DNA of 64,000 bases from Candidatus Sungiibacteriota bacterium. Lineage in GTDB: Bacteria; Patescibacteriota; Minisyncoccia; Sungbacterales; JACQCQ01. Shown piece by piece: positions 1,153 through 59,780 of this stretch. The notes below the pieces were generated by a model. The model made no database searches. It was not told the origin of the DNA and was given only the letters and a program-made list of their open reading frames with translations. The DNA lies in the NCBI GenBank assembly GCA_016201505.1, contig JACQCQ010000013.1, forward strand, positions 80,830 through 144,829. The letters are read 5' to 3'. The translations under genes were made by a program, and so were the position numbers. Every line of letters begins with the position of its first letter. Positions within the stretch are counted from its first letter, which is position 1.

Positions 1153-1381
1153 GGTCAGACTCCCTTCCTTTAAGTTTTAGCGCCTCATCTTCGCTGGGCG
1201 CCACTTGAATAGTACTATAATACCTAAAATAAGATGTGTCAATAATCGCGTCGCCTGGGGAGACTACTGGTGTGTTATTTCTATCGCTTTATAGAGATTC
1301 TATCTCCAGGCCTTTAAATGGCGAACTAAACCACGAAACAATCGCCCTTCCATTTACTGATACTTACATTACACATTACAA

Positions 1382-1419
1382 ACTAGTACATTTTATCCGA
1401 TCGGATAAAATGTACTAGT
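1382..1419. promoter_or_regulatory. 38-bp perfect palindrome ACTAGTACATTTTATCCGA|TCGGATAAAATGTACTAGT (operator type 1, copy a). It abuts the stop codon of the regulator gene.
   Basis: Perfect 19+19 inverted repeat. Related copies occur at 1978-2015 and 17034-17071. Confidence 0.6.
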
Positions 1420-1976
1420 TATCTATGAATACCAAACTTATACAATAAATACTTTTCTGAAGTAACTGAATCAGCCACAATATAATGCACGTATTTTCCG
1501 ATTTGGAAGGATTCTGCAATAAAATCTATCTCATCTTTACATTCATATGGCCAAACCCAAAGACTTTTTTGCAGCTGTACGCAGCCAAGATCAATCAGTT
1601 TATGGCGCAACGCATCCCTGCCTCTTCTCAATTGTTCAGGAATATCAAACGCAATCATCCTCCATTTGCCATCCCACATCGGAAAGGTGGGCAATACGAT
1701 CGATTCAAGGTTGTAAATGAGAGCTTTCCTTTTACCTTCTTCGGTCAGGGTAATCCTTGTTTTTCCGCCGATCTCTTTATATTCAATATATTTCTTGCGT
1801 CGTAAATAGTTAATCGTCCAAATAAATTTTTCTCGTTCCTGCTTTTGTTTTATTTCTTTACGGAGCGCAGAGAGCAATTTGCTTGAAAAATTTTTGTTCC
1901 CCAAAGCAAGATAGAAAGCTCCCGCATTCAATAAAAGTTTTAGGAGCTGGCTCGTATACCCATGGTGATTCCTCAT
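1419..1976 (-). CDS. Small transcriptional regulator with an N-terminal winged-helix and a C-terminal Cas2/PaaX_C-like domain (PaaX-family-like). The true start is probably the internal Met of ORF 1419..2267.
   Basis: The C-terminus MIAFDIPEQLRRGRDALRHKLIDLGCVQLQKSLWV resembles the Cas2/PaaX C-domain pattern (I/V)xFD(I/V)...RR..L...L...G.R.Q.S(V/L)(F/W). A wH-like segment KKYIEYKEIGGKTRITLTEEGKRKAL is also present. The longer ORF would overlap gap and read through the palindrome. Confidence 0.55.
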   Translation of the reverse strand: MRNHHGYTSQLLKLLLNAGAFYLALGNKNFSSKLLSALRKEIKQKQEREKFIWTINYLRRKKYIEYKEIGGKTRITLTEEGKRKALIYNLESIVLPTFPMWDGKWRMIAFDIPEQLRRGRDALRHKLIDLGCVQLQKSLWVWPYECKDEIDFIAESFQIGKYVHYIVADSVTSEKYLLYKFGIHR

Positions 1977-1977
1977 A

Positions 1978-2015
1978 ACTAGTATTTTATTCCCGATCGG
2001 ATAAAAAATACTAGT
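1978..2015. promoter_or_regulatory. Operator type 1, copy b (imperfect palindrome ACTAGTATTTTATTCCCGA|TCGGATAAAAAATACTAGT), 2 nt upstream of the regulator start codon.
   Basis: Same half-site core as 1382-1419. It overlaps the expected promoter/RBS region of the regulator, suggesting autoregulation. Confidence 0.55.
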
Positions 2016-2068
2016 TCTGCTTGGATGCTCGTATACTCCGATGCCTATGAGCCGATCATAAGCCTCGA

Positions 2069-14565: not shown

Positions 14566-15633
14566 TCACAGGAAATAATGACGCACATCATGGAAACTGA
14601 TAAATAAAACCAAAATAAGAATCAAGATGATGCCTGCGGTGTGCGCCAGTTGCTCATGCCGCATATGGACCGGGCGGCCGCGAATCTTTTCCGTAAGCAA
14701 GAATAAAATCCTGCCCCCATCCAGTCCGGGAAACGGGATGACGTTTAGTACCGCAAGACTAACGGAGAGCGCGGCCACAAATTGAATAAAATAAACAAAC
14801 CCGAGCTTGGCAAATTGATTGGTTAAGACGAAAACGCCGATTGGGCCCGAAACACTTTCGGGAATGCGCCCCTCGATGACACCGGACTTAAAAATAGAAC
14901 CAAAGGCTTCAAGCGTTGCGCGAAGCGCATACCAAAGACTTTTCGCCCCATACCAGGGGGCTTTATACCAGGCAACTTTATATATCCCGACGTCAGCCAG
15001 CGCGATACCGAGCGGCCCCTCTCCCGCCGGAGGATTTTTTCGTGCTTCAACATCAACGACCTGCGTGTCCGATCCGTTTTGGATGGTAATATGCAACGTT
15101 TCGCCTTTATGCCGGTTTACAAAAAAAACCAGATCATCGGCACTCTTCGGCACCAAACTTTCATTGGTGGCAACTAGTTTCTCGACGATGCTCCCGAAAC
15201 TAATTTTGGCCTTCGCGGCTGGACCATCTGAAGCGACATCGGTGATCGTTACCTTTTGATTGACCGTATCACTATCTCCGACAGATGGAACACCGATGCC
15301 AAAGCCAATCGAAAATAAAACCCAGGCCAAAACCAGGTTCATGAAAACGCCGGCCAAAATAATAACCACCCGATGCCAAATGGGATGCGAGGCAAAGCTT
15401 TTTTTATTATCCGCCCCTTCGCCTGATTCACCGAATAATCTAACAAACCCGCCGAGTGGAACGAGATTTAAGGAATAGATTGTCTCGCCCACTTTTTTAG
15501 CCAAAATCCGCGGCGGAAATCCAAAGCCAAACTCGTCAACGCGAATGCCGAAACTCCGCGCCGCAAAAAAATGTCCCCACTCGTGAACAAGGACAATGAC
15601 TACAAGAACAGCGATAAAGATAATGACGGACAT
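14566..15633 (-). CDS. rseP: Site-2 protease, M50 zinc metalloprotease.
   Basis: HEWGHF (HExxH) in the first TM helix; PDZ-like middle region; multi-TM architecture. Confidence 0.85.
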   Translation of the reverse strand: MSVIIFIAVLVVIVLVHEWGHFFAARSFGIRVDEFGFGFPPRILAKKVGETIYSLNLVPLGGFVRLFGESGEGADNKKSFASHPIWHRVVIILAGVFMNLVLAWVLFSIGFGIGVPSVGDSDTVNQKVTITDVASDGPAAKAKISFGSIVEKLVATNESLVPKSADDLVFFVNRHKGETLHITIQNGSDTQVVDVEARKNPPAGEGPLGIALADVGIYKVAWYKAPWYGAKSLWYALRATLEAFGSIFKSGVIEGRIPESVSGPIGVFVLTNQFAKLGFVYFIQFVAALSVSLAVLNVIPFPGLDGGRILFLLTEKIRGRPVHMRHEQLAHTAGIILILILVLFISFHDVRHYFL

Positions 15634-15686
15634 ACAATCAAAGTACATTATTCTAACTTATCAAACCATAGCGTTGCATCATCGAT

Positions 15687-15718
15687 AAAAGTTCGATAGA
15701 CTAGTCTATCGAACTTTT
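15687..15718. promoter_or_regulatory. Operator type 2, copy a: AAAAGTTCGATAGACT|AGTCTATCGAACTTTT, 32-bp perfect palindrome between the TrpR-like gene stop and the rseP start.
   Basis: Perfect inverted repeat sharing the core GTTCGATAGACTAGTCTATCGAAC with copies at 16149, 20417, 29422 and 35243. Confidence 0.6.
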
Positions 15719-15804
15719 TCACATTGCGGCTAACGAGCGCTTCCATCTTTTAAAACTTGCGGGCGAGCCTTTTACGGGTAGATCGAGCAACGCGATTACT
15801 TTCT

Positions 15805-16143
15805 CTAATGTTCCCATGAAACCTTTGAATTTTTCTGATTTTTGTGGATCAGAATAATTTTTGCATAGCCTCCCGCCGAACGTACTAGCTCCCTTTCGAC
15901 TGAATACACGGTGCTCTTACTTATTTTAAGAATTCTACAAATCGCAATCACATCAAATCCTTGTTCGATGAAAAACGCAACCATAAAACGTTTTGCGAGC
16001 ATCACTTTCTCGCTCCGCGTGAAGAATTCAGAAAGAAACAACGAGGCGTCGACTTCTCGAAGCTTCCCTAAGGCTCTAAACAGCGAGGAGATTATTTCCT
16101 GTTCGAATTCTTTTGAAATTTTATTCTGTGATACTCTCGGCAT
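15805..16143 (-). CDS. TrpR-related YerC/YecD-family small DNA-binding protein.
   Basis: 112 aa. The segment EKVMLAKRFMVAFFIEQGFDVIAICRILKISKSTVYSVERELVRSAGGY matches the YerC/YecD Trp-repressor-like HTH pattern. Confidence 0.75.
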   Translation of the reverse strand: MPRVSQNKISKEFEQEIISSLFRALGKLREVDASLFLSEFFTRSEKVMLAKRFMVAFFIEQGFDVIAICRILKISKSTVYSVERELVRSAGGYAKIILIHKNQKNSKVSWEH

Positions 16144-16148
16144 AGTAT

Positions 16149-16180
16149 ATTAGTTCGATAGACTAGTCTATCGAACTAAT
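16149..16180. promoter_or_regulatory. Operator type 2, copy b: ATTAGTTCGATAGACT|AGTCTATCGAACTAAT, 32-bp perfect palindrome 5 nt upstream of the TrpR-like start codon and overlapping the tlyA stop.
   Basis: Perfect palindrome with the same 24-bp core as 15687-15718. Confidence 0.6.
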
Positions 16181-16904
16181 TGACAGTGTAGCGAAAATGA
16201 ACGAGGTACTCAACATTACCCTTTGCGCCCCGAATTGGTGATTCGGCGGATCCAGCTACTTCCCAGCCCTGAAGTTTCGCCCAGTTTAAAAATTTATGAA
16301 GCGCAGTTTTTCGAATTTCCGCATCGGTTACAATGCCGTGATGAATCTCGCGTAAGTCTACTTCATATTGCGGTTTAAAAAGAAATACCCCTTCGGCGGT
16401 ACTCGCTAAAAACTTTTTTACCGATAGCAGAATATATCTAAGCGAGGTAAACGAAACATCACAGGTGACAAATTCTATTGGTTCCGGCAATGAGACAAGA
16501 TAAAGCAAATTCGTCTCTTCCATCACGACGATGCGCGGATCCTCGCGCAATTTTAAGGCCAGCTTCCCGCGCGCCGTATCAATAGCATAAACTTTTTTGG
16601 CGCCATGATTTAATAAGACTTCCGTAAATCCGCCAATGGCCGCGCCAATATCGGCGCAAACTTTTCCTTCGACGTTAAGGTCAAACTTTTCAAATGCGCC
16701 TTCTAATTTATAGCCGCCGCGGCCGACGTATTTTCTCGGCTCGCGCACTTTTAAAATCGCCTCTTGCAGATAAAGCTCTGCCGGCGAAACGGCTTTCCGG
16801 CCTCCGACAAAAATATCGCCTTCGGTTACGCGAATAAAAGCTTCGGCTTTACCTTTCACAATCCCCCGCTCGATCAAAATTTCGTCCAGTCGCTTCTTTT
16901 TCAT
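16176..16904 (-). CDS. tlyA: TlyA-family rRNA 2'-O-methyltransferase (hemolysin A-like).
   Basis: S4-like N-terminus, YVGRGGYKLEGAFEKF, SAM-binding CADIGAAIGGFTEVLL and VYAIDTARG motifs. Confidence 0.85.
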   Translation of the reverse strand: MKKKRLDEILIERGIVKGKAEAFIRVTEGDIFVGGRKAVSPAELYLQEAILKVREPRKYVGRGGYKLEGAFEKFDLNVEGKVCADIGAAIGGFTEVLLNHGAKKVYAIDTARGKLALKLREDPRIVVMEETNLLYLVSLPEPIEFVTCDVSFTSLRYILLSVKKFLASTAEGVFLFKPQYEVDLREIHHGIVTDAEIRKTALHKFLNWAKLQGWEVAGSAESPIRGAKGNVEYLVHFRYTVN

Positions 16905-17033: not shown

Positions 17034-17071
17034 CTAGTACCTTTTATCCGATCGGATAAAAGGTACTAGCT
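17034..17071. promoter_or_regulatory. Operator type 1, copy c: ACTAGTACCTTTTATCCGA|TCGGATAAAAGGTACTAGC, in the frr-tlyA intergenic region.
   Basis: Near-perfect 38-bp palindrome with the same core TTTTATCCGATCGGATAAAA as copies at 1382 and 1978. Confidence 0.55.
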
Positions 17072-20416: not shown

Positions 20417-20448
20417 TATAAGTACGATAGACTAGTCTATCGTACTTA
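20417..20448. promoter_or_regulatory. Operator type 2, copy c: ATAAGTACGATAGACT|AGTCTATCGTACTTAT, with a symmetric T-to-A variant in both half-sites. It lies upstream of holB.
   Basis: 32-bp perfect palindrome; the half-site change is mirrored, preserving dyad symmetry. Confidence 0.55.
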
Positions 20449-20545
20449 TGCGTATGCAATCTAAGGTTCACAAAACACCCGACATCTGCCAACTGGCGGA
20501 TGTCGGGTCGATCTTTGCATTACTACACCTACGTACTCTCACCGT

Positions 20546-23337: not shown

Positions 23338-24558
23338 TTAGAATGCGGAAGTTCCAAGCGGCGTGCCAAGGCCGGTTGGCCCGTCGTAGCCGGTAAGAGC
23401 GGTGCAAAGATAAGTGCCTGCGCAGCTGCCATTGGAGCCGGAGGTAATGTCGTGCATATTCGCTGAATTGCCGAGTGCATACGGCAGCGAGGCGGGAGAA
23501 GAGGAACCAACCGTTCCCTGAAGCCCATAGACGGCGGCAATCAGCGGACTCGACAAACTTGTCCCGCCGACCTTAAACCAGCCTGACTTGCCCTGATACC
23601 GAACACTGTCATACACCGCTGCTCCCGTGTTGGGGTCTGCCACTGCCGAGACATCGGCAATGGCCCGATGAGTACACGACGCATCGCTTTGCCAGGTTGG
23701 TTTTGATTCATACTGACTGCACCCCGACCCACTGCCTGACCAGGCAGTCTCGCTGTTATAGGAGTTATCTGAATTTAAGAATAACGTCGTCCCGCCAACG
23801 GCGACAACGTATTGAGAGGCGGCCGGATACTCCACGCCGTAGCCTGCGTCTCCCGAACTGAAGGTGAATACAATTCCAGAATGATTGAAGTGCGCGTCGT
23901 AGCCAGTCTCACCAGAAAATTCCGCCGAGCCGTATGAATTCGAGACTTCGTTGGCGCCGAGCGTTACCGCGCGATCCACCGCGGCCATTAAATTGGCATA
24001 TGAATTTGAGCTGGCTTCGACAAGCAGGATGCCGCAGTTTTGGCACATAGCGTGAGCTACTTCAACGTCGAGCGAAATCTCAAGCGCCCAACCGGAATTG
24101 ACCGAAGGATAATTAAATGTCTGACCAAATTGATTTACTTTTTGAAAGCAGGGGGAAGCCGAGGCGGCAATTGGTCCGGCACACTGAGGCAACACCGGAA
24201 TGGCGTAGGTTTTACTGTAGGTGGCGAGATCCGAATAAATATTCGGGTCATCATACGCGTCCACGATGGCAATAATATTTTTTGTAGCAGAAGTTGTGGG
24301 AACACTATAGGCCACGTGAAATTGGGTCGGTCCAAATCCGTTTGGCAACGATGTCGTTTTCGGCGTCGATCGATCAGATTCGGTGATCACGCGCACATGA
24401 CAGCGGACATCGCCATCCCTCGGATGACAGACTGCGATGTGCGGCTCATGAAGAAGCTTACTGTCATCTCTTTCATTATCAGTTTTGGCGACCGCCACCG
24501 CCGCCACAAGCAACGTAGCCGCAATGACACTAAAAAAGACTTTATCGGGATAGTTCAT
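23338..24558 (-). CDS. Secreted S53 (sedolisin-type) serine-carboxyl peptidase (S8/S53 superfamily).
   Basis: Signal/TM N-terminus. Sedolisin triad context: E-x-S-L-D-V-E (EISLDVE), SSGDAG, and GGTSLSSP. Confidence 0.75.
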   Translation of the reverse strand: MNYPDKVFFSVIAATLLVAAVAVAKTDNERDDSKLLHEPHIAVCHPRDGDVRCHVRVITESDRSTPKTTSLPNGFGPTQFHVAYSVPTTSATKNIIAIVDAYDDPNIYSDLATYSKTYAIPVLPQCAGPIAASASPCFQKVNQFGQTFNYPSVNSGWALEISLDVEVAHAMCQNCGILLVEASSNSYANLMAAVDRAVTLGANEVSNSYGSAEFSGETGYDAHFNHSGIVFTFSSGDAGYGVEYPAASQYVVAVGGTTLFLNSDNSYNSETAWSGSGSGCSQYESKPTWQSDASCTHRAIADVSAVADPNTGAAVYDSVRYQGKSGWFKVGGTSLSSPLIAAVYGLQGTVGSSSPASLPYALGNSANMHDITSGSNGSCAGTYLCTALTGYDGPTGLGTPLGTSAF

Positions 24559-24699
24559 AACCTCGTAGGCATCATACCAGACCTTGTGTCATATTTCAAA
24601 CACCGACCTCTGCAAAACTAAGACCATTCTGCCGTCGGGCGGTTTTCGTTTTATGAAAACCATGGGGGAGAAATTATGATACTCCGAGCTGTACTCATT

Positions 24700-24752
24700 T
24701 CCTGCGATCGCAGGAAATGAGTACAGCGAATCAAAAGCCGCGCGATGCGCGG
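24700..24752. terminator. Tandem hairpins: a 20+20-bp perfect palindrome followed by a GC hairpin with a T-run.
   Basis: GCTGTACTCATTTCCTGCGA|TCGCAGGAAATGAGTACAGC followed by AAAAGCCGCGCGATGCGCGGCTTTT. Confidence 0.5.
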
Positions 24753-25075
24753 CTTTTGTGTTGCTCAAAAAATTTCCCGCCTTCTCCGCCAGCTGGCAGA
24801 TACGGAAGGGCGCAGCAACTGTTTTATCCCTGAATGAATTCCAACTGTTCCGACTTTGGTCTTCCGAAGCTCCGTGAGGAGCGCAGGAGACCGCGCTGTA
24901 ATGTCCCCATTACAACGACTAGTCTCGGTGTATCGTGTTTCAGCCGTCCGAAGCTCTTGCGAGCGTAGGAGACTTCCGAGACCAAACACGTCTTTGGCTC
25001 GCCGTAGCTCCGTGAGGAGCGTAGACGGCTTTCATTCTCCAGGATGAGATAAGGAGGCGAGGCGCTTGCAGTACT

Positions 25076-28920: not shown

Positions 28921-29204
28921 GCGCGAGCGCTTTCGATCCCATTCGCTCCCCACGCTTTCGTCTGTGAACGTCAGGACAAGGCCAGCAACATGCCTTCGCC
29001 TTTGGTATTCCCTATGATATCAACGGATTTCACCCCTACACCATAAGTTCTAGTTGCCTCTCCTTGCCTCTAGTCGTGCCGTTTCGAATGCGGCCTACGA
29101 GTTAAGCCCGTAGATTTAACACCCGACTAACACGACCGTCTGGAGACCCTTTACGCCCAATAAATCCGGATAACGCTTGAAGCCTTCGTATTACCGCGGC
29201 TGCT

Positions 29205-29332
29205 GGCCAGGTAGTAGAAGTTCGACTGCGCGCGAGCGCAAATTATTTTCGAACATTTAATTTTCAGAGCCATGACAGATAGTGCTCCCAACTACAGAAA
29301 TCTTCATTTCATAGTCGAACTTTCACTACCTG
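29205..29332. repeat. 128-bp hairpin intervening element inserted in the 16S 530-loop region. Terminal repeats CCAGGTAGTAGAAGTTCGACTG / CAGTCGAACTTTCACTACCTGG. Family member 2 (IVS/MITE-like).
   Basis: The insertion splits the universally conserved GCTGCTGGCAC (519 site) into GCTGCTGGC | element | CTGGCAC, with a CTGGC direct repeat. The 22-bp terminal inverted repeats are near-identical to those of the 28613 element. Confidence 0.65.
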
Positions 29333-29344
29333 GCTGGCACGAAA

Positions 29345-29995
29345 TTCTACCGCCAATTTGGACTATATCATCACCCCGATGTTCATCGGGGGTCCCGCGT
29401 GTAGTCTCTGAGGGCTCTCTGCTATAAGTTCGATAGACTAGTCTATCGAACTTATAGAAACAGGTTGCCTGCTGATTGTTTCGTTGCGCGTCTTTGCAGT
29501 TTGCAAAACATTTCCGCGGACACAACGAAGTGTTCCAGTCCCGCAAGCCTCCCCACCGCAATACACTGATGTATTGTAGTGGCATGACTCACAGGATTCC
29601 CGAATCCATCTTTTCTTACGGCCAATAGGGCCGCGGGATTGCGATTTGTAACTACTCCGCCTTCGCTAAAAGCTTCGGCGGACAAGTCGTTACACTCGCA
29701 GACAAATCGGGAACATATAGCGAGATTTTCTTATGACGTATTACTACGCCAACTTCGCACCAAGTTTTTCTAACTTCACGAAGTTTGCAGCTTCTTATTC
29801 ATCTGGTACGGTCAGTCGTGCCTCGCTCTAGCGAACCACTCTCAATTTTAAATTTCCAATTTCTAATTTTCAATGAATGTCCTAATGTCTCAATTTCCAA
29901 AGGTTTGGGGTATTGAATCATTAAGAATTGACTGAAAATTGCAAAATTGATCATTGCAAATTGTGTGCCTCACAAAAGTGAGACACGACTTCTTC
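29345..29995 (-). other. About 540 extra nt in the 16S region between E. coli positions about 400 and 515. It contains the operator type 2 palindrome and sequence blocks shared with the LAGLIDADG intron.
   Basis: Blocks GCGTGTAGTCTCTGAGGG (29396-29413) and GTTGCCTGCTGATTGT (29464-29479) also occur at 26222-26238 and 26261-26276 within the LAGLIDADG ORF region. Conserved 16S resumes near 29995 (CTTTACAGACCGAAGTCCTTCTTCCTGCACGCGGCG). Confidence 0.5.
29422..29457. promoter_or_regulatory. Operator type 2, copy d: CTATAAGTTCGATAGACT|AGTCTATCGAACTTATAG, 36-bp perfect palindrome, located inside the 16S insertion.
   Basis: Identical 36/36 to the copy at 35243-35278. Confidence 0.55.
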
Positions 29996-30978: not shown

Positions 30979-31386
30979 CTACGGACGGCCTGTCCAGCCG
31001 TCATCGAATGAACCGATTCGATGCGTCGCAGGATCTGCCGGCGTTCCGGCGAGTAGCGAGAACTGCGTACCGAGATCGTCAGCCTTGAAACCGTGATCAA
31101 GCAGGAACTGACGCGTCCGCGCGATACGCTCGATGATAGGGTCTATGGCGCTTGAGCCTCTCTTCCGCCAGAGCTTATCCAGCGCCCAGAGAAGATCACG
31201 GGCCTTTCCCTTCTGATGCAGAATTTTCAAAGCTCCCGGTTCCCCCGCAATTTCGTAGAGAATCTCATCCTCGATAGATTCAAGCGCCCGAAGCTGATGG
31301 CGCCAGATGCGAAGCAACGAGCTTGCGGGAGGCACAATGTACCCCTCGCTTGTAAGCGTACCAAGGATTTTACTCGGCATTGTCAC
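30979..31386 (-). CDS. Hypothetical protein (135 aa) in a high-GC island. The frame stays open for about 100 more codons after an in-frame TAG.
   Basis: ORF with protein-like composition. After the TAG at 30979-30981 the same frame stays open to the terminator at about 30665. Confidence 0.35.
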   Translation of the reverse strand: MTMPSKILGTLTSEGYIVPPASSLLRIWRHQLRALESIEDEILYEIAGEPGALKILHQKGKARDLLWALDKLWRKRGSSAIDPIIERIARTRQFLLDHGFKADDLGTQFSLLAGTPADPATHRIGSFDDGWTGRP

Positions 31387-31776: not shown

Positions 31777-31806
31777 ATCCCGTTAGAAACTTTTTCTAAT
31801 CGGGAT
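31777..31806. repeat. Short hairpin ATCCCGTTAGAAACTTTTTCTAATCGGGAT, a minimal member of the CCCGTTAGA inverted-repeat family.
   Basis: Inverted repeat CCCGTTAGAA / TTCTAA(T)CGGG. Confidence 0.5.
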
Positions 31807-31830: not shown

Positions 31831-31858
31831 CACTCCAATACTTTAAAGTATTGGAGTG
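31831..31858. promoter_or_regulatory. Operator type 3, solo copy: CACTCCAATACTTT|AAAGTATTGGAGTG, 28-bp perfect palindrome.
   Basis: Identical to the palindrome at 36548-36575 flanking the second TrpR-like gene. Confidence 0.55.
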
Positions 31859-31876: not shown

Positions 31877-31905
31877 TGTCCCGTTAGAAACTTTTCCTAA
31901 CGGGA
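31877..31905. repeat. Short hairpin GTCCCGTTAGAAACTTTTCCTAACGGGAT (CCCGTTAGA family).
   Basis: Inverted repeat CCCGTTAG / CTAACGGG with a 10-nt loop. Confidence 0.5.
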
Positions 31906-32175: not shown

Positions 32176-32242
32176 CATCCCGTTTAGAAGTAAGAAACTG
32201 ATGTTTCTGCTACTTTCAGAGAAAGAGGACTTCTAACGGGAT
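32176..32242. mobile_element. MITE-like element (67 bp) with ATCCCGTTTAGAAG / CTTCTAACGGGAT terminal inverted repeats.
   Basis: Terminal inverted repeats share the CCCGTTAGA core with the elements at 32309, 35068, 58294 and 59674. Confidence 0.5.
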
Positions 32243-32308
32243 ACATTTAACCTATCTGACAACCAAGTTAAGGTAAGTAAAAGTATAAGCCTCTATAAGA
32301 AATTGTCA

Positions 32309-32473
32309 ATCCCGTTAGAAGCCGCGACTACGAAAGATAGAACTAAAATGATTATTTTTATTGAATCTAGACTAATCTGACACAAACACGTTTGATCGCG
32401 ATCCTACCTGCGCTCCGTCGGCCATAGCCTTTGGCGACGTGCGACCGGCAGGCAGGTCTGCTTCTAACGGGAT
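32309..32473. mobile_element. MITE-like element (165 bp). Its left terminal repeat ATCCCGTTAGAAGCCGCGA and right terminal repeat TCTGCTTCTAACGGGAT match the two ends of the 59674-59780 element in reverse orientation.
   Basis: 14-17-bp terminal inverted repeats. The internal GTTTGATCGCGATC block is shared with the 59674 element. It lies just downstream of the ROK kinase stop codon. Confidence 0.6.
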
Positions 32474-32498: not shown

Positions 32499-33236
32499 TC
32501 AGCGAAACAGCAACGCCGCCCCGATGGCTTGAGCCGCATCCCCTAAAGCGCCAAATGCAATTTGAGGCACGATATCGCCTAATCGATCGGCTACTTTTTT
32601 CTGCAGGACTTCTAAATCATATTTTCCCGCCGCAATCGGCCCGCCGCCGATGACGACAGCTTGGGGATGAAATTTATGAATGGCTTCAGAAATTACCCCC
32701 GCATATGCGTTGGACGCATCACCGGCAATCGCAAATTCTTGACGGGCTAATTCTTCCCACTCAATGGCGCCTTTCTTCCAATGTCCGATTTCACCCGCTC
32801 GTCCATCATCGCCGACATAAAACGTTCCGTTCTTCCAAACAGCGCCCCCAATGCCAGTCCCGACGACAACACCGACCGCGTCTTTAAATCCGCGGGCCGC
32901 ACCCCAGGCCATCTCGGCGGAGAGAAAACAGCGCGCGTCATTATCGGCCCGGATCTCGCCTGAAAAATCAGGCAGCAGATCGGCCGCGGATTGGTGATTT
33001 AAAAATGAAATATTCGGTGCCTCTTCGATGATCAATCCGCCCTCTGGTACAAACCCGGCGAGGCTTAATCCGATCTTAGTTCCTTCAAAGTCTTTCGCGA
33101 TATCGGATAAGGATTTTTTTAATTCAGCTAAGCTTTTTGGAGTCTGGATTTTTTTAGCTTGAAAGTTTTGGCTAAGAAACCCTCGAAGCACGACACTTCG
33201 AATCCAGGTTGCGCCGATATCAATCCCCAAATACAT
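32499..33236 (-). CDS. ROK-family sugar kinase (glucokinase-like).
   Basis: MYLGIDIGATWIRSVVL N-terminal actin-fold phosphate-1 motif; GVVVGTGIGGAV; ROK signature region DGRAGEIGHW. Confidence 0.85.
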   Translation of the reverse strand: MYLGIDIGATWIRSVVLRGFLSQNFQAKKIQTPKSLAELKKSLSDIAKDFEGTKIGLSLAGFVPEGGLIIEEAPNISFLNHQSAADLLPDFSGEIRADNDARCFLSAEMAWGAARGFKDAVGVVVGTGIGGAVWKNGTFYVGDDGRAGEIGHWKKGAIEWEELARQEFAIAGDASNAYAGVISEAIHKFHPQAVVIGGGPIAAGKYDLEVLQKKVADRLGDIVPQIAFGALGDAAQAIGAALLFR

Positions 33237-33239
33237 GAA

Positions 33240-35069
33240 CTATAGCGCGCTCTGGTTAAATAATTCACCCGCCATATTCCAATATTCTGGTCTGGCATGT
33301 TTTGTTTTCATGTAATACCACCATTCTGCCCCCCAAAGATAATATTCATCAAATCCGGCGGCTTGGGCATAGCTGATAACTTCTTGGAAGTATGCGGGGG
33401 TGAAATTGTTAATTTGCGTTTTGATCGGAGTCTCCGGAATGGATAAATGCTGCCAGGGTTCGGCTTGTAATTCAATCACGAGATAGCGCTCATCGGGTTT
33501 GCCGGTAAAATATTTCACGAATTTTTCTTTCAGCAAAAAAGCGCCGGGACCAATGGGATATTCCGTCACACCAAAAAACGGACCCAAAATGCGCGAATAG
33601 ACTTTGCGGTACATCGTCGTGCCAAAAACATCGCCGCGCGAAGCCGCGCGAATCCAATCCCCCGTCTCGCCCGCGTCCGATATTAAAATTTGGTGCGCTG
33701 GATCAATTGATCGCACTAAGGCTATTTCGTTATCAAGAAATCCGCCGGGCCGCGAAGGGCAGGTGCCAAAGGGCAGAAATGGTTCATTTTCCACTTGCCA
33801 GAGATAGAGACTCGGACTGGCTACGTAATGTCGGACAACCTCGGCGATAAAGGGTTGCAGCTTGGCTTCTTTCTCCCCTGTCGAAAGATTCTCTACCCAG
33901 CCAGGAAGATGGCACTCCGGCCAACGCGGCAGCTTCATGCCGACCGCCAAAATTACCGGCAGGTTTCTTTTTTCGGCCTCATGCATAAGGATATCCAGCC
34001 GCGAGAAATCGAATTTATTTTCCTTTGGCTCGATCTCGTCCCAATAGGCCACAAGCCGCAGGCGTTTCGGTTGGAGTTCATCGAGTATGGCAATGTACGA
34101 CGAACGCCAATCCAGCCCGAGTTGGTCGGTAAAGGCGGTCGAGAACGTAAGTCCCCAGACAATCGGCCGGTCGGGATTCTTTTTTAATGTACCAGAATAA
34201 GCGGAAAGTCCGAACACTAAAAGCCCCGAGAAAATGAAAGCTATTGCCAGAATTTTCCCCCATAACACCCTGCCGCGAAATTTCTCATGCAGCAGCAATG
34301 CGCCAAAAATAAAAATAATGACATACTGAAAGCCCTGGACAGACTCAACCAGCGCCGGATGCGCCAGAAAAACGGCAAACGAAAATAAGAACGAGCCAAT
34401 TCCCGCGACGAGACGATTGGCCAGATAATATGCGCTTTCAGTTTTGATTTCCGCCCCTTTTTCGCTTTGCAGCTTCTGGCGAAACTGCGGAATCAGAAAA
34501 GCCAAAAGCGCAAGCAACACGCCGCCGATTTTTACCCAGACAAATCCGGCGATAAACGTGCTGTGAAGGTAGACGTATTTGGTGAGCACTTGTGAAAAAC
34601 CGAGCAGAAGTGCGCTGAATGTGGTCAGGAGGATCATGCGAACCCTCATTCCGCGCTCTTCGATAAAAAAGAGGACTAGGCCCCCGAAGACTAAAAACCA
34701 AAAGCCAAATGATTCGCCCTGCCCGACCGGAATATGCAGCAGATACGAAGAAAACAGAAGTGCCGAGAGGGCTGAAAATCCGGCAATGATGGGCAGGCTA
34801 ATGGAGGCCTCGCTGTGATGCAAGGCGAAATAAAGCAAGAGGAGACCCAGACAGAATAATGCCCCCGCGGCAAGCGCTGTACCTATCAAACTAATCGGAA
34901 TAACGACATTCCCAAAAGGAATTAAAACAAGCGCAAAAAGTCCCAAGAGGCCCAACCAGAAGGCATACGACCAAGGATTAAAAACCCCGCGTTTTAAAAT
35001 CACGCGATCAAAAACTGCTGCCAGACCAAGTAGGAATTGAGATAAAAGTGCGACAAAGAGCCAGTTCAT
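33240..35069 (-). CDS. Membrane-anchored glycoside hydrolase: N-terminal about 9-10 TM helix domain fused to a C-terminal clan GH-A TIM-barrel hydrolase domain.
   Basis: Multiple hydrophobic helices across the first 300 aa. The C-terminal domain has the WQVENEP motif (the NEP acid/base of clan GH-A) and GH5/GH42-like context. Confidence 0.75.
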   Translation of the reverse strand: MNWLFVALLSQFLLGLAAVFDRVILKRGVFNPWSYAFWLGLLGLFALVLIPFGNVVIPISLIGTALAAGALFCLGLLLLYFALHHSEASISLPIIAGFSALSALLFSSYLLHIPVGQGESFGFWFLVFGGLVLFFIEERGMRVRMILLTTFSALLLGFSQVLTKYVYLHSTFIAGFVWVKIGGVLLALLAFLIPQFRQKLQSEKGAEIKTESAYYLANRLVAGIGSFLFSFAVFLAHPALVESVQGFQYVIIFIFGALLLHEKFRGRVLWGKILAIAFIFSGLLVFGLSAYSGTLKKNPDRPIVWGLTFSTAFTDQLGLDWRSSYIAILDELQPKRLRLVAYWDEIEPKENKFDFSRLDILMHEAEKRNLPVILAVGMKLPRWPECHLPGWVENLSTGEKEAKLQPFIAEVVRHYVASPSLYLWQVENEPFLPFGTCPSRPGGFLDNEIALVRSIDPAHQILISDAGETGDWIRAASRGDVFGTTMYRKVYSRILGPFFGVTEYPIGPGAFLLKEKFVKYFTGKPDERYLVIELQAEPWQHLSIPETPIKTQINNFTPAYFQEVISYAQAAGFDEYYLWGAEWWYYMKTKHARPEYWNMAGELFNQSAL

Positions 35070-35172
35070 CCCGTTAGAGAATTAATCAGTAACTCTAGCG
35101 CAAGTTTAATGTCTATATGTGCTACAAGTCTCATTTTCGGAATACAGTTTCTCGCTAATTCTCTAACGGGAT
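35068..35172. mobile_element. MITE-like element (105 bp) with 17-bp terminal inverted repeats ATCCCGTTAGAGAATTA. Its left end overlaps the start codon of the upstream membrane GH gene.
   Basis: Perfect 17-bp terminal inverted repeats. The element begins with the AT of the gene's ATG (rc of 35067-35069). Confidence 0.6.
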
Positions 35173-35242: not shown

Positions 35243-35278
35243 CTATAAGTTCGATAGACTAGTCTATCGAACTTATAG
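35243..35278. promoter_or_regulatory. Operator type 2, copy e (36-bp perfect palindrome) upstream of the membrane GH gene.
   Basis: CTATAAGTTCGATAGACTAGTCTATCGAACTTATAG, identical to 29422-29457. Confidence 0.55.
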
Positions 35279-35325: not shown

Positions 35326-36537
35326 CTAATCCCCCAACGGGATTGTATTCGTTGCGATGATTTTTTTGTACTCAAGGGCCGATGGTCGAATTTTGCGCTC
35401 TTGGGTTTTGTAGTTTACCTCCACCAGGCCAAACCGCGGACTAAATCCGGAGTCCCATTCAAAATTATCGATGAGAGACCAGTGTAAATAGCCAAAGCAG
35501 TTCACTCCCTTTGTTAAAGCTCTTGCGACGCTTTTCACATTATCTTGAATGTAGGCCGGCCGGTAATTATCTTTGGCGTCAGCCAGTCCGTTTTCAGTGA
35601 CGATAATCGACGCATTAAATCTTCGATGTAAGCCCATCAGTGCATGATACAGACTCCCGTCAAAAATTTCCCAACCCATATCTGAAACTTTTTTGTTTTT
35701 ATTTCTGCCAAAGCCGTAATGAATGCGATTATGAAAATAATGATTTAAGCCAATAAAATCAAAATGCCCTCGCGTGTGATTTAAAACATGATAGTTCCAG
35801 ATGCGGTCAGCCGCCCATTTCAAAATATAGTTCACCGGCCCGCCCGCGGATTCAAAGTAGACAATATTAACTGCCAGCCCGACTTTGGCATCGGGGCGCA
35901 CACCCTTTACCGCCTGATAGGCTTTCCGATGAGCAGTAATCAAGCGCGCGATAGCTTTATAAAATAAAAAAATATTCTTCTTTTGCGGCCCCCACTTGCC
36001 CCTTAAATAGGAGTTTAAGGCATAGATCTCCGGTTCATTGATAGTGATCCAATGGCGGACATCGCCACCGAAAGCCTCGGCCATTTTTTTTACGTAGCGT
36101 TCAAAGTACATCGGGAATTGGCTTGATTGAATCCCGCCCTGATTGCGAAGCCAAATTGGTAACGTAAAGTGCCACAGGGTGAGAAACGGCTCAATGCCGC
36201 GCTCGCGAAGCGCTTTAATTACCTCGCGATAATGTTCAATGGCAGCCTGATCGAATTTTCCTTTTTTCGGCTCAATGTATGACCACTCAAGCGAAAACCG
36301 GTGCGCATTGTGGCCTAAATCTTTGGCGATATCAAAATCCTCGCGGAATCGATTATAGTGATCAGAGGCGCGGCCTGAAATATAATCTTCGGGATTTAAA
36401 CCTTCGGTCTTTAACTCTAGAACGCGCTTGGGAGACTCTTCCCACTCCGTCCAATCATTATGATTTGCGCCTTCTACCTGATGCGCCGAGGTTGCAGCCC
36501 CCCAGAAAAATCCGCTCGGAAATTTAAATGTCTCCAT
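35326..36537 (-). CDS. bgl: GH1 family beta-glucosidase.
   Basis: N-terminal FPSGFFWGAATSAHQVEG GH1 signature; catalytic acid TINEP (WITINEPEI); nucleophile motif TENG (IIVTENGLAD). Confidence 0.95.
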   Translation of the reverse strand: METFKFPSGFFWGAATSAHQVEGANHNDWTEWEESPKRVLELKTEGLNPEDYISGRASDHYNRFREDFDIAKDLGHNAHRFSLEWSYIEPKKGKFDQAAIEHYREVIKALRERGIEPFLTLWHFTLPIWLRNQGGIQSSQFPMYFERYVKKMAEAFGGDVRHWITINEPEIYALNSYLRGKWGPQKKNIFLFYKAIARLITAHRKAYQAVKGVRPDAKVGLAVNIVYFESAGGPVNYILKWAADRIWNYHVLNHTRGHFDFIGLNHYFHNRIHYGFGRNKNKKVSDMGWEIFDGSLYHALMGLHRRFNASIIVTENGLADAKDNYRPAYIQDNVKSVARALTKGVNCFGYLHWSLIDNFEWDSGFSPRFGLVEVNYKTQERKIRPSALEYKKIIATNTIPLGD

Positions 36538-36547
36538 GTTATCAACT

Positions 36548-36575
36548 CACTCCAATACTTTAAAGTATTGGAGTG
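36548..36575. promoter_or_regulatory. Operator type 3, copy a: CACTCCAATACTTTAAAGTATTGGAGTG. It abuts the stop of the TrpR-like gene and lies 10 nt upstream of the GH1 start.
   Basis: 28-bp perfect palindrome. Confidence 0.6.
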
Positions 36576-36986
36576 CTATACTTTCACCATGTTCCATCGA
36601 CCCCTTGGATCTGATTTTCTCGGTAAGCTCATAAAGAGTTTTTCAATAGTTTCAAACGTATTCTTGAAATTTTTGCTCCTCTCAAGATTTTTTATAAACA
36701 TCCTGAATCCCCTTCCATCGCGCTGAAGTTTTTCACTAATCGTGCCTATGGTAGTTTGGCTAACTTTTAAAATTCGTTCTATCTGCTGATAGGAGTAATC
36801 CTCTTCGAGCAAAAGCGCTATTAAGATTCTTTTTCCGAGCATTGCTTTTTCAGTAGTAGTCAATAAATCATCAAAGAACAATTTCAACGAGCCTCTATCC
36901 CGCAAAATTAAGGTGGCTTCGACGATTCTGCTTGACAGATCATCTATATGGCCTGGCGTTAATTTATAACGTGATAGATGCGGCAT
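36576..36986 (-). CDS. TrpR-related YerC/YecD-family small DNA-binding protein (second paralogue).
   Basis: 136 aa. FFDDLLTTTEKAMLGKRILIALLLEEDYSYQQIERILKVSQTTIGTISEKL closely follows the YerC/YecD consensus (FFDDL.T..E...L..R...A..L.EG.SY..I.......S..TIS). Confidence 0.75.
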   Translation of the reverse strand: MPHLSRYKLTPGHIDDLSSRIVEATLILRDRGSLKLFFDDLLTTTEKAMLGKRILIALLLEEDYSYQQIERILKVSQTTIGTISEKLQRDGRGFRMFIKNLERSKNFKNTFETIEKLFMSLPRKSDPRGRWNMVKV

Positions 36987-36992
36987 GGCTGT

Positions 36993-37020
36993 ACTCTAAT
37001 ACTTTAAAGTATTGGAGTAA
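36993..37020. promoter_or_regulatory. Operator type 3, copy b: TACTCTAATACTTTAAAGTATTGGAGTA (1 mismatch), 6 nt upstream of the TrpR-like start codon.
   Basis: Near-perfect palindrome with the same core as 36548-36575. Confidence 0.55.
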
Positions 37021-37032
37021 AGTTTTTGGTGG

Positions 37033-37731
37033 TTATGGTGAATGCTTTTCGCGCCAGTCGGCGATTTTTTTATGATTTCCGGAAAGCAGAATCTTGGGAA
37101 CGGCGTATTTCTTACCTTTATATTCTAATACCTCCGGGCGCGTATAGTGCGGATATTCGAGCCCCTGCTTAAGAGATGCGGCCTTTTCTTTTTTAAGCAA
37201 AAGATTCCAATGCGATTCCTCTTTTAACGAATCAAGCCGAATGACTCCAGGGACCAAGCGCGCAATAGCCGAAATGATAACCATTGCTGCCGCATCACCA
37301 TCCGTTAACACATACGGCCCGATCGAAATTTCTTCGGCATGCAAAATTTTCAATACCCGTTCGTCGATACCTTCATATCGGCCGCTGATGAGCACGAGCC
37401 GCTGATATTTTTTTGCCCAGCCATGAGCCATTTTTTGGTTAAATGGCTTGCCTTTGGCCGAGAGCACAATGATCTTTGTACGCACTTCGGCGGGTTTGTC
37501 TTTTGACCTTACGTGCTCGATGACACGTATAATCGGCTCGGCCATCAGCACCATCCCCGCTCCTCCGCCGTATGGCCTGTCGTCAACTTGCCGATACGTT
37601 CCTTTGGCCCAATTTCTTACATTATGAATCTGGACGGAAATGAGGCCGCGTTCCTTGGCACGGCCCAAAACCGACGTATCAAAATACGACTCAAGTGCTT
37701 GCGGCGTTACCGATAGGATATCAAATCGCAT
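37033..37731 (-). CDS. trmD: tRNA (guanine37-N1)-methyltransferase.
   Basis: SPOUT knot region with GRYEGIDER and PYGGGAGMV. Full-length TrmD similarity. Confidence 0.9.
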   Translation of the reverse strand: MRFDILSVTPQALESYFDTSVLGRAKERGLISVQIHNVRNWAKGTYRQVDDRPYGGGAGMVLMAEPIIRVIEHVRSKDKPAEVRTKIIVLSAKGKPFNQKMAHGWAKKYQRLVLISGRYEGIDERVLKILHAEEISIGPYVLTDGDAAAMVIISAIARLVPGVIRLDSLKEESHWNLLLKKEKAASLKQGLEYPHYTRPEVLEYKGKKYAVPKILLSGNHKKIADWREKHSP

Positions 37732-37824
37732 TAAGCTGTATTCCAGCATATTTATTTTTATTTCTCAAATGTGAGCCAAAATCAAAATCCGTGCTGTGGC
37801 GCGGATTTTGATTTTGGTGTTTTG

Positions 37825-50735: not shown

Positions 50736-50763
50736 GGTCATCCGATAACATGAAAAGTCCTAA

Positions 50764-50808
50764 AAAACATTCTCAAGTTCTTAAGAACTTGAGAATGTTT
50801 TTTAGGTT
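50764..50808. terminator. Bidirectional rho-independent terminator: 30-bp perfect palindrome flanked by A6 and T6.
   Basis: AAAAAACATTCTCAAGTTCTTAAGAACTTGAGAATGTTTTTT between convergent genes. Confidence 0.7.
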
Positions 50809-58293: not shown

Positions 58294-58392
58294 ACCCCGT
58301 TAGATACTATGCGAACAGACATAGCGCTTACTTTAGAATTTGGGTTGCAATCGGGGTTTTTGGTCTTTTTCATACTCATTATCTAACGGGGT
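58294..58392. mobile_element. MITE-like element (99 bp) with ACCCCGTTAGATA / TATCTAACGGGGT terminal inverted repeats, between rpsK and rpsD.
   Basis: 13-bp terminal inverted repeats with the CCCGTTAGA core. Confidence 0.5.
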
Positions 58393-59561: not shown

Positions 59562-59675
59562 TTAGCCTTGCCGCTGCTTATGCTTTGGATTCTTGCATAC
59601 AACAAATACTCGACCGTTCCGTCGAGTTGTCTTGCAATGACTGCAGATCTTTTTAACCGATGCGCGAACTTTCAT
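59562..59675 (-). CDS. rpmJ: 50S ribosomal protein L36. It is not in the ORF track because it is under 60 aa.
   Basis: Manual translation [37 protein letters not shown] matches the L36 consensus ([11 protein letters not shown]...RR.GR..V.C.NP.HKQRQG). Confidence 0.85.
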
Positions 59676-59780
59676 CCCGTTAGAAGCAGATCGCGATCAA
59701 ACGCGTTGTCTGCAAAAATAAATGTAATTAAATTGCTCTTTGTAACCCCGCTATTTCGCGATCGCGGCTTCTAACGGGAT
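59674..59780. mobile_element. MITE-like element (107 bp). Its terminal repeats ATCCCGTTAGAAGCAGA...CGCGGCTTCTAACGGGAT match those of the 32309 element in reverse orientation. Its left end overlaps the rpmJ start codon.
   Basis: Both ends carry the CCCGTTAGAAG core and match the 32309-32473 ends in reverse orientation. An internal GATCGCGATCAAACGCG block is shared with 32309-32473. The element begins with the AT of the rpmJ ATG. Confidence 0.6.

Follow-up and report, generated by a model that had tools for sequence, protein, structure and literature searches.

Why should a small regulator gene lie between two copies of one palindrome, and what do the palindromes do? The question is raised by a 64,000-nt stretch of DNA (the window) from the metagenome-assembled genome of a Candidatus Sungbacteria, an uncultivated groundwater bacterium of the Candidate Phyla Radiation (CPR, or Patescibacteria). 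There, a gene encoding a 136-residue protein of the TrpR superfamily, identical to NCBI HY220_04220, is bracketed by two copies of a 28-bp palindrome, here termed palindrome C. A first-pass annotation had described three regulator cassettes of this layout and proposed that they are possibly mobile or homing modules. From comparison across genomes, we consider it likely that palindrome C is the cognate operator of the adjacent repressor, with an operator on either side of the gene, and the palindromes are better read as such than as recombination or homing sites. To our knowledge, nearly no studies have addressed gene regulation in CPR bacteria, because these organisms are uncultivated. A literature search on YerC or TrpR in CPR or Patescibacteria gave a single relevant paper, on HisR (PMC9413887), and no description of the layout or of CPR TrpR-like regulators.

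The regulator and its palindrome

The locus is composed of the following features, all genes being on the minus strand:

37033..37749, minus strand: trmD (Pfam tRNA_m1G_MT); its stop codon is the left edge of a variable slot
36992..37019, no strand: upstream palindrome C, imperfect (25/28), proposed autoregulatory operator over the regulator promoter
36576..36986, minus strand: TrpR-superfamily regulator HY220_04220, 136 aa (Pfam PF01371, profile search and fold)
36548..36575, no strand: stop-side palindrome C, perfect, proposed strong operator (target operator, looping partner or roadblock)
35326..36537, minus strand: GH1 beta-glucosidase-type gene (Pfam Glyco_hydro_1, 2.2e-79), probable regulated target
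33240..35069, minus strand: membrane-anchored glycoside hydrolase, mGH (Pfam; conserved gene order)
32499..33236, minus strand: ROK-family gene (Pfam; conserved gene order)
31831..31858, no strand: solo perfect palindrome C, 640 nt past the ROK stop, within 2 kb of non-coding DNA that precedes the 16S rRNA gene

The 28-mer CACTCCAATACTTTAAAGTATTGGAGTG, with halves CACTCCAATACTTT and AAAGTATTGGAGTG, had been reported as three identical copies. It is indeed perfect at 36548-36575 and 31831-31858, but the third copy, TACTCTAATACTTTAAAGTATTGGAGTA, matches at 25 of 28 positions and lies at 36992-37019, one base off the position first given (36993-37020); it does precede the regulator start, at a spacing of 5 rather than 6 nt. 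This upstream copy has a single broken pair inside its 26-nt core, which is C-A on the sense strand and thus no wobble. Three C copies with at most three mismatches are observed over the 64 kb of genome to which all copy counts of genes and palindromes in the window refer, versus none in 100 dinucleotide-preserving shuffles. The perfect copy directly touches the regulator stop codon (36576-36578) and is separated from the GH1 ATG (36537) by 10 nt, and the imperfect copy lies 5 nt from the regulator ATG (36986) and 13 nt past the trmD stop. Rfam (gathering threshold) and tRNA-gene scans of the window gave no RNA gene that overlaps or adjoins a C palindrome.

The protein had been labelled a TrpR/YerC paralogue. 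It matches the Pfam Trp_repressor family (PF01371; 48.6 bits for a cut-off of 27, E 8.7e-13, residues 21-101), and a profile built from the regulator and its homologues matches the YerC/HisR-type structures PDB 3kor, 3frw and 3g1c (5e-14 to 2e-11). Its AlphaFold2 (AF2) model (pLDDT 81) has the all-helical TrpR fold with a helix-turn-helix (HTH), with Foldseek target-normalised TM scores of 0.74-0.83 to the same three structures and 0.64-0.78 to E. coli TrpR. The score to NCBIfam yecD_yerC (TIGR02531) is 36.1 bits, under the cut-off of 42.2 (19.5 bits for the second TrpR-like paralogue of the window), and that to TIGR01321 only 21.8 bits. Because of the Pfam, PDB and fold matches on one side and this sub-cut-off score on the other, the regulator belongs to the TrpR superfamily, closest to the HisR branch, and is no bona fide YerC; the TrpR-type HTH thus stands and the YerC label does not. 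HisR proteins have fewer than 100 residues and regulate histidine biosynthesis or uptake, whereas the regulator has 136 residues and trmD, GH1, hydrolase and ROK genes as neighbours. It is ~40 residues longer than TrpR or HisR, with an extra predicted C-terminal helix (residues 107-120) and a disordered tail. Other TrpR-like loci have gyrA/folD, dnaB/tRNA-Leu, ychF or gatB as neighbours, likewise without a his context.

The layout recurs across CPR genomes

A search with the family profile against one genome per species gave 19 loci, in Sungbacteria-, Gottesmanbacteria- and Paceibacterota-like and other CPR genomes, and one more TrpR-like locus (L054) came from metagenomes. With the window counted in, 21 TrpR-like loci could be assessed, each with ~4 kb covered on either side; a GH1-based scan of metagenomes gave a further set of 80 loci. 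The same locus-specific palindrome of 24-40 bp is found on both sides of the gene in 19 of the 21 assessable loci, the exceptions being L003, with an upstream copy only, and L014, in which the downstream copy is degenerate. No further palindrome copies were found within ~±4 kb of the TrpR-like loci. In L017 the gene is preceded by three copies and followed by four. The upstream palindrome lies a median of 10 nt from the ATG; the gap from the stop to the downstream palindrome has a median of 6 nt and is at most 25 nt in 17 of 19 loci, with four palindromes overlapping the stop codon. The centres of the two copies are 436-562 bp apart (444 bp in the window). Where one copy is the less perfect palindrome, it is the upstream one in nine loci and the downstream one in one. 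The stop-side copy lies 4-10 nt before the GH1 start codon in the window, L001, L002 and L005. In three other loci, a tRNA-Leu(CAA) gene begins 31-54 nt after it (L008, 1933-2022; L010, 4488-4574; L013, 646-732), and a stable-RNA gene may be a target in these lineages.

The layout extends to a second protein family. The two other cassettes announced for the window are both present, and the three palindromes are mutually distinct:

15687..16180, minus strand: cassette 2, TrpR-like gene 15805..16143 between identical copies of palindrome B (16149-16180 and 15687-15718)
1381..2016, minus strand: cassette 1, PaaX-like gene ~1419..1976 between 40-bp palindromes (~1977-2016 and 1381-1420)

Palindrome B has the halves AGTTCGATAGACT and AGTCTATCGAACT, with solo copies at 20418-20449, 29422-29457 and 35243-35278; the palindromes of cassette 1 have a CGATCG centre, with a solo copy at 17034-17069. 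The two TrpR-like paralogues of the window are 30% identical. PaaX-like regulators (169-189 aa, with a PaaX_M/Cas2-like domain) carry the same 36-40 bp palindrome at start and stop in five of five loci (window 1381-2016; L038 1428-2115; L041 1893-2491; L033 ~7150-7830; L085 ~870-1480), with the palindrome overlapping the stop codon in the window and in L041, and they are located within or next to the GH1/hydrolase cluster. The description of palindrome-gene-palindrome as a self-contained unit is thereby borne out: the arrangement, read as operator-gene-operator, is a conserved architecture of the TrpR-like family across CPR lineages, common to the PaaX-like regulators. The protein family, palindromic operators and autoregulation are already established, whereas the literature searched describes neither a second operator by the stop codon, nor its retention where neighbouring genes converge, nor the block-wise replacement presented below.

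Anatomy of the proposed operators and the recognition helix

When the palindrome arms are shifted by 8 nt against themselves, 65% of positions agree, versus 14-45% at other shifts, and none of 2000 shuffles reaches 65%. In the window, the arm CACTCCAA TACTTT contains two 8-bp sub-sites (xACTxxxA, then TACTTT), so that a whole C site is made of four sub-sites, two forward and two reverse. TrpR reads GNACT half-sites at 8-bp spacing (PMC9413887) and PDB 1trr is, by its entry title, a tandem TrpR/half-site complex; two dimers would probably bind in tandem on each C site, in the manner of the TrpR operators.

The arms also co-vary with the protein. A recognition helix starting with SQTT goes with the arm ACTCC (window, L004, L005), S[D/E]AT with ACTTC (L007, L054), SSATIGK with ACTTT.AT.ATTT (L009, L014), SVSTVN with GTTCTGATGTTTT (L012, L015) and SPTTT with ACTATTCCAGTAT (L017, L019). 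The window protein is 53-56% identical to those of L001-L003 and 49% identical to that of L004, and it is with L004 only that it has its palindrome arms in common, the helix start being the same and the genomic context different. The arm sequence tracks the start of the recognition helix, not overall relatedness.

Among known systems, E. coli TrpR, acting at the trpEDCBA, aroH and trpR operators, resembles the window regulator in fold, in a palindromic operator with ACT sub-sites every 8 bp and, as proposed here too, in tandem dimer binding (PDB 1trr) and in autoregulation from a site in its own promoter (PMC9413887). Its sequence is remote; the protein here has 136 residues with an added C-terminal helix, its proposed operator spans 26-28 bp and stands a second time, in full, at the stop codon, and neither trp nor aro genes are found close by. 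HisR (YerC/YecD of Firmicutes) is nearest in sequence and structure; HisR/YerC operators are lineage-specific palindromes, often also found before hisR itself, and autoregulation is frequent, being predicted in about half of the genomes (PMC9413887). HisR, however, has fewer than 100 residues and 20-bp sites upstream of his or transporter genes, whereas the sites here flank the regulator gene.

Proposed regulation by the two sites

The upstream copy coincides with a putative promoter of the regulator:

36993..36998, minus strand: -10-like hexamer TAGAGT, at -12..-7 from the A of the regulator ATG, putative leaderless promoter
37016..37021, minus strand: -35-like hexamer TTTACT, 17 nt upstream of TAGAGT, putative and weak, read from the sequence

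TAGAGT ends 6 nt before the ATG and is created by a mismatch, one of three that the upstream copy has; TTTACT (37016..37021) was left unreported by the consensus scan. A TAnnnT hexamer at exactly -12..-7 from the ATG is present in 6 of the 10 TrpR-like loci of the Sungbacteria-like clade and in three of five PaaX-like loci, with a fourth at -13, versus 5 of 54 window open reading frames (ORFs) as background. In L007, the promoter must fall in the palindrome region, since only ~40 nt separate the end of a canonical terminator from the ATG. Together, the hexamer offset and this terminator suggest that the regulator mRNAs are probably leaderless and that the operator covers the core promoter. Window genes including 14566..15648 and 16176..16904 have TAnnnT at the same -12..-7 offset and Shine-Dalgarno-like motifs are rare; leaderless mRNAs appear to be common in the group. 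A leaderless promoter within the palindrome was rejected as a general rule, since it fails in distant clades and for the GH1 gene of the window.

We propose that the repressor, on binding the imperfect upstream copy, would shut its own promoter and so exert negative autoregulation. The perfect stop-side copy would probably be the stronger site. A less perfect upstream copy is expected if it also encodes a promoter, and the data fit an upstream weak site under promoter constraint and a stop-side strong auxiliary site. With the perfect copy 10 nt from the GH1 start codon, its occupancy would be expected to block GH1 and probably also the downstream hydrolase and ROK genes, either by occlusion or by halting polymerase coming through from the regulator gene. 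The mGH and ROK genes, co-oriented downstream of GH1, probably form one sugar-use cluster with it. DNA looping over the 444 bp that separate them may let the two sites cooperate, and the solo C copy at 31831 is probably a further site of the regulon. As no -10 was found between palindrome and GH1 ATG, transcription started at the regulator promoter may run on into GH1, and the bound repressor would then be a roadblock to it.

Auxiliary operators that lie within or behind a gene, at a distance of a few hundred bp, and enhance repression or stop elongating polymerase are familiar from lac O1/O2 and from the LacI, GalR, DeoR and CcpA/CodY roadblocks. In such systems the auxiliary site is the weaker one and lies in the target operon, whereas in the present case the better palindrome is the stop-side one and the sites bracket the regulator gene itself.

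Several observations weigh against this proposal. The stop-side copy is also found between convergent genes, facing gyrA (L011, L012), ychF (L004) or gatB (L017), so that a role as target operator is insufficient and a second role, tied to the regulator gene itself (loop, roadblock or insulation) or as an RNA hairpin, is needed; in L012 the copy sits inside a 46-nt gap. Over distances of 436-562 bp, a hand calculation of helical phasing gave no preference for whole turns between the two copies. The -10 at -12 is absent in more distant clades, and in the window neither a GH1 promoter nor a -10 was found between palindrome and ATG, which also removes the earlier claim that the palindrome abuts the GH1 promoter: its neighbour is the GH1 start codon. 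The protein, as noted, scores below the YerC cut-off. Finally, everything functional, from binding and the direction of regulation to leaderless mRNAs, a loop or roadblock and the effector, is comparative inference. A consensus scan of 31-38 kb was uninformative, with fewer promoter-like sites than in shuffles and palindromes that look terminator-like on the antisense strand only.

In the relatives L044, L053, L055, L062 and L038, the GH1 ATG is preceded, at exactly 6 nt, by the end of an extended -10 (TGcTATAAT-like). Within the window, a near-consensus sigma-70 promoter (TTGACA-16-TATACT, 11 of 12 matches, 32282-32309, minus strand) points towards the solo C palindrome; it also faces an ORF of 133-135 aa with a good ribosome-binding site (30979..31386), the 16S rRNA gene lying ~1.7 kb further.

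The palindromes as possible RNA elements

The palindromes could instead act in the transcript, as a hairpin that serves as 3'-end stabiliser, processing site (e.g. for RNase III), terminator or translational-coupling element, and this we judge unlikely. Such a role would account for a stop-side copy that touches or overlaps the stop codon, is the more perfect of the two and is found between convergent genes, and excision by a double-strand RNase would be plausible for the palindrome B copy located in an rRNA intervening sequence. It would leave unexplained the 8-bp periodicity, the co-variation with the helix and the presence of one lineage-specific sequence in both copies, of which the upstream one would not be transcribed if the mRNA is leaderless. 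The broken pair of the window upstream copy, C-A on the sense strand, is not a wobble pair. A U-tract is absent on the sense strand, and separate canonical terminators stand right beside the palindromes in L019 and L007. An intrinsic terminator was rejected for palindrome C: on the sense (minus) strand the stem is A+T-rich with tails AGTTGATAAC and CAGCCATGCC, and the palindrome is flagged on the antisense strand only; canonical intrinsic terminators are present elsewhere in the window.

In its coupling variant, the hairpin would hide GGAG before GH1 until the ribosome terminates at the abutting stop; in any of these RNA roles, the neighbouring regulator would be incidental to the stop-side copy. 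The 3' arm of the window stop-side copy does hold GGAG, 13 nt before the GH1 ATG; the objections from periodicity and helix co-variation apply to it as well.

Block replacement in the trmD-GH1 slot

Small genes between two palindromic sites of ~28 bp, together with solo sites and sometimes inverted copies, are known from palindrome-flanked recombination modules such as the Acinetobacter pdif modules, integron cassettes and REP-RAYT units. By analogy, the palindromes could be recombination sites (cf. pdif/Xer, attC) of a mobile or homing cassette, with the solo copies as empty targets or footprints. We consider this a slim possibility, a little slimmer than action in the transcript.

The order rpsP-KH-trmD-regulator-GH1-mGH-ROK is common to the window, L001, L002 and L005, and regulator-GH1-mGH-ROK is kept in the window, L001, L002 (/L028), L005 and L054. 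In these loci the regulators are 49-59% identical, much like the flanking proteins (44-65%); the gyrA/regulator/folD context is conserved in three genomes and dnaB-regulator-tRNA-Leu in another three. Orders conserved at such divergence indicate long vertical inheritance, and synteny kept at 45-65% protein identity counts against a mobile cassette.

The slot between trmD and GH1 nevertheless turns over, so that the comparison for presence or absence in relatives, called for by the first-pass annotation, was positive for block turnover. It holds a TrpR-like block in L028-32 and L054, a PaaX-like block with its own palindromes in L038 and L041/42, and unrelated palindrome-free genes in L024/25, L043, L052 and L062, and it is empty in L044-47, L045, L053, L055 and L078. 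L054 and L041 are close relatives (trmD ends 91% identical, GH1-mGH DNA 82% over 2.1 kb, GH1 proteins 87%), yet the first carries a TrpR-like and the second a PaaX-like block; between L002 and L054, the GH1 proteins are 80% identical and the regulators 47%. Both contrasts indicate that whole regulator-plus-operator blocks are replaced in the slot. Close pairs were chosen from a GH1 neighbour-joining tree that is star-like and without support values, and which served for this choice only.

Different blocks between flanks 82-91% identical, the GH1/regulator contrast of L002 and L054, and empty slots (L044, L045, L053, L055, L078) would all suit a mobile cassette, as would a solo B copy within an insertion of the 16S rRNA gene and copies that are mutually reverse-complement in three of the four loci with an asymmetric centre (inverted in L002, L004 and L054, direct in L009). 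Terminal inverted repeats were rejected on this last point, as numbers are few and inconsistent, with three inverted, one direct and L017/L019 mixed.

The break points speak otherwise. In L054 versus L041, the sole pair compared at base resolution, alignable DNA gives out at the trmD stop codon on one side and ~17 nt into GH1 on the other. From these points to the palindromes there are 40-100 nt in L054 and ~40 and 25 nt in L041, so that in this pair the cassette boundaries are not the palindromes as had been supposed. Genes without palindromes vary in the same slot. No recombinase or transposase was found in or beside the cassette, only weak, sub-cut-off HTH similarity to transposase DNA-binding domains, and the neighbours are housekeeping genes. 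One site-specific recombinase cannot serve three different palindromes, and a Xer/dif-like reading of the 11-6-11 structure was rejected on the same ground, the three cassettes of one genome having unrelated arms. The 30% identity of the window paralogues excludes recent copying, and a phage origin was rejected, with no relatives among 2.9 million viral contigs. Known palindrome-flanked modules thus differ from the present units on four counts: here there is no recombinase, sites differ among cassettes, break points are off the sites and the recognition helix tracks the site.

Given these break points, the palindrome-free variation, the missing recombinase, the unrelated palindromes and the lack of viral relatives, we prefer recombination in the flanks to palindrome-mediated movement: the unit is probably inherited vertically, and blocks are occasionally replaced whole, probably by recombination in flanking genes. 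Mobile or homing modules are therefore not retained, and the palindromes are more likely operators.

It is very improbable that the palindromes are generic dispersed repeats of REP/MITE type that lie next to regulators by coincidence: the window does hold several other palindrome and hairpin families, but a locus-specific palindrome stands at both gene ends in 19/21 loci of distant lineages, other copies are lacking within ~±4 kb, and its sequence follows the recognition helix.

Operator-gene-operator units as possible immunity-like modules

In the immunity region of lambdoid phages, cI is flanked by OL and OR, with three sub-operators per side, 2.4 kb apart. The CPR units share with it a repressor bracketed by its own operators, putative looping cooperation, orthogonal specificities and exchange as one block; they differ in protein family, in having single 28-bp sites 436-562 bp apart and in being chromosomal. 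Tentatively, CPR repressors of at least two unrelated families might be portable, self-insulating operator-gene-operator units, in which the stop operator would serve as roadblock or loop anchor and which would be swapped between genomes in conserved slots like lambdoid immunity regions; we regard this generalisation as possible rather than probable. If so, the stop-side operator would shield the unit against read-through where genomes leave hardly any DNA between genes, and solo copies would define small regulons readable from sequence. A second operator coupled to the stop codon, even between convergent genes, raises the matter of transcription insulation in compact genomes, whether by looping, roadblocks or RNA hairpins.

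Since the layout recurs in related bacteria, regulator and probable binding site can be paired by sequence alone. If each regulator carries its operator at both ends, regulator-operator pairs could be read from metagenomes; this would provide a natural table of recognition-helix residues versus operator bases for the TrpR-type fold, regulon reconstruction in uncultivated bacteria through searches for solo copies, and a large set of orthogonal repressor-operator pairs for synthetic biology.

Further palindromes and repeats in the window

One perfect copy of palindrome B (35243-35278) lies between the GH1 stop and the start of the membrane hydrolase; with C before GH1 and B before the hydrolase, the sugar cluster has sites of both TrpR-like paralogues. 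Another (29422-29457) lies in the middle of a 577-nt insertion (~29177-29755) without a convincing ORF, in the 530-loop region of the 16S rRNA gene, which has additional insertions of 162 nt and ~900 nt (between 27923 and 28823).

At 24688-24727, a perfect palindrome of 40 bp, with a GCGATCGC centre, is built like those that flank the PaaX-like genes. It stands 130 nt ahead of the minus-strand gene 23338..24558 and adjoins a canonical terminator (24732-24758); as no regulator gene adjoins, we take it for a probable orphan operator of PaaX type. Between two convergent genes, at 50759-50806, a perfect palindrome of 48 bp containing A- and T-runs resembles an intrinsic terminator for both directions, without relation to the regulator cassettes.

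Hairpin elements ~100 nt long, conserved at their ends (ATCCCGTTAGA...TCTAACGGGAT) and variable in between, are found at 35069-35171, 58295-58391 and 59675-59779. Their motif has 12 matches versus 3.2 expected, and the predicted RNA folds range from -26 to -48 kcal/mol. Short forms at 31778-31805 and 31879-31905 flank the solo C palindrome, with further sites at 32232, 32310 and 32463. Several elements terminate exactly at a start codon, for instance at the membrane hydrolase ATG (35069), and a palindrome with the hairpin-element motif is located 171 nt upstream of GH1 in L093 and L095.

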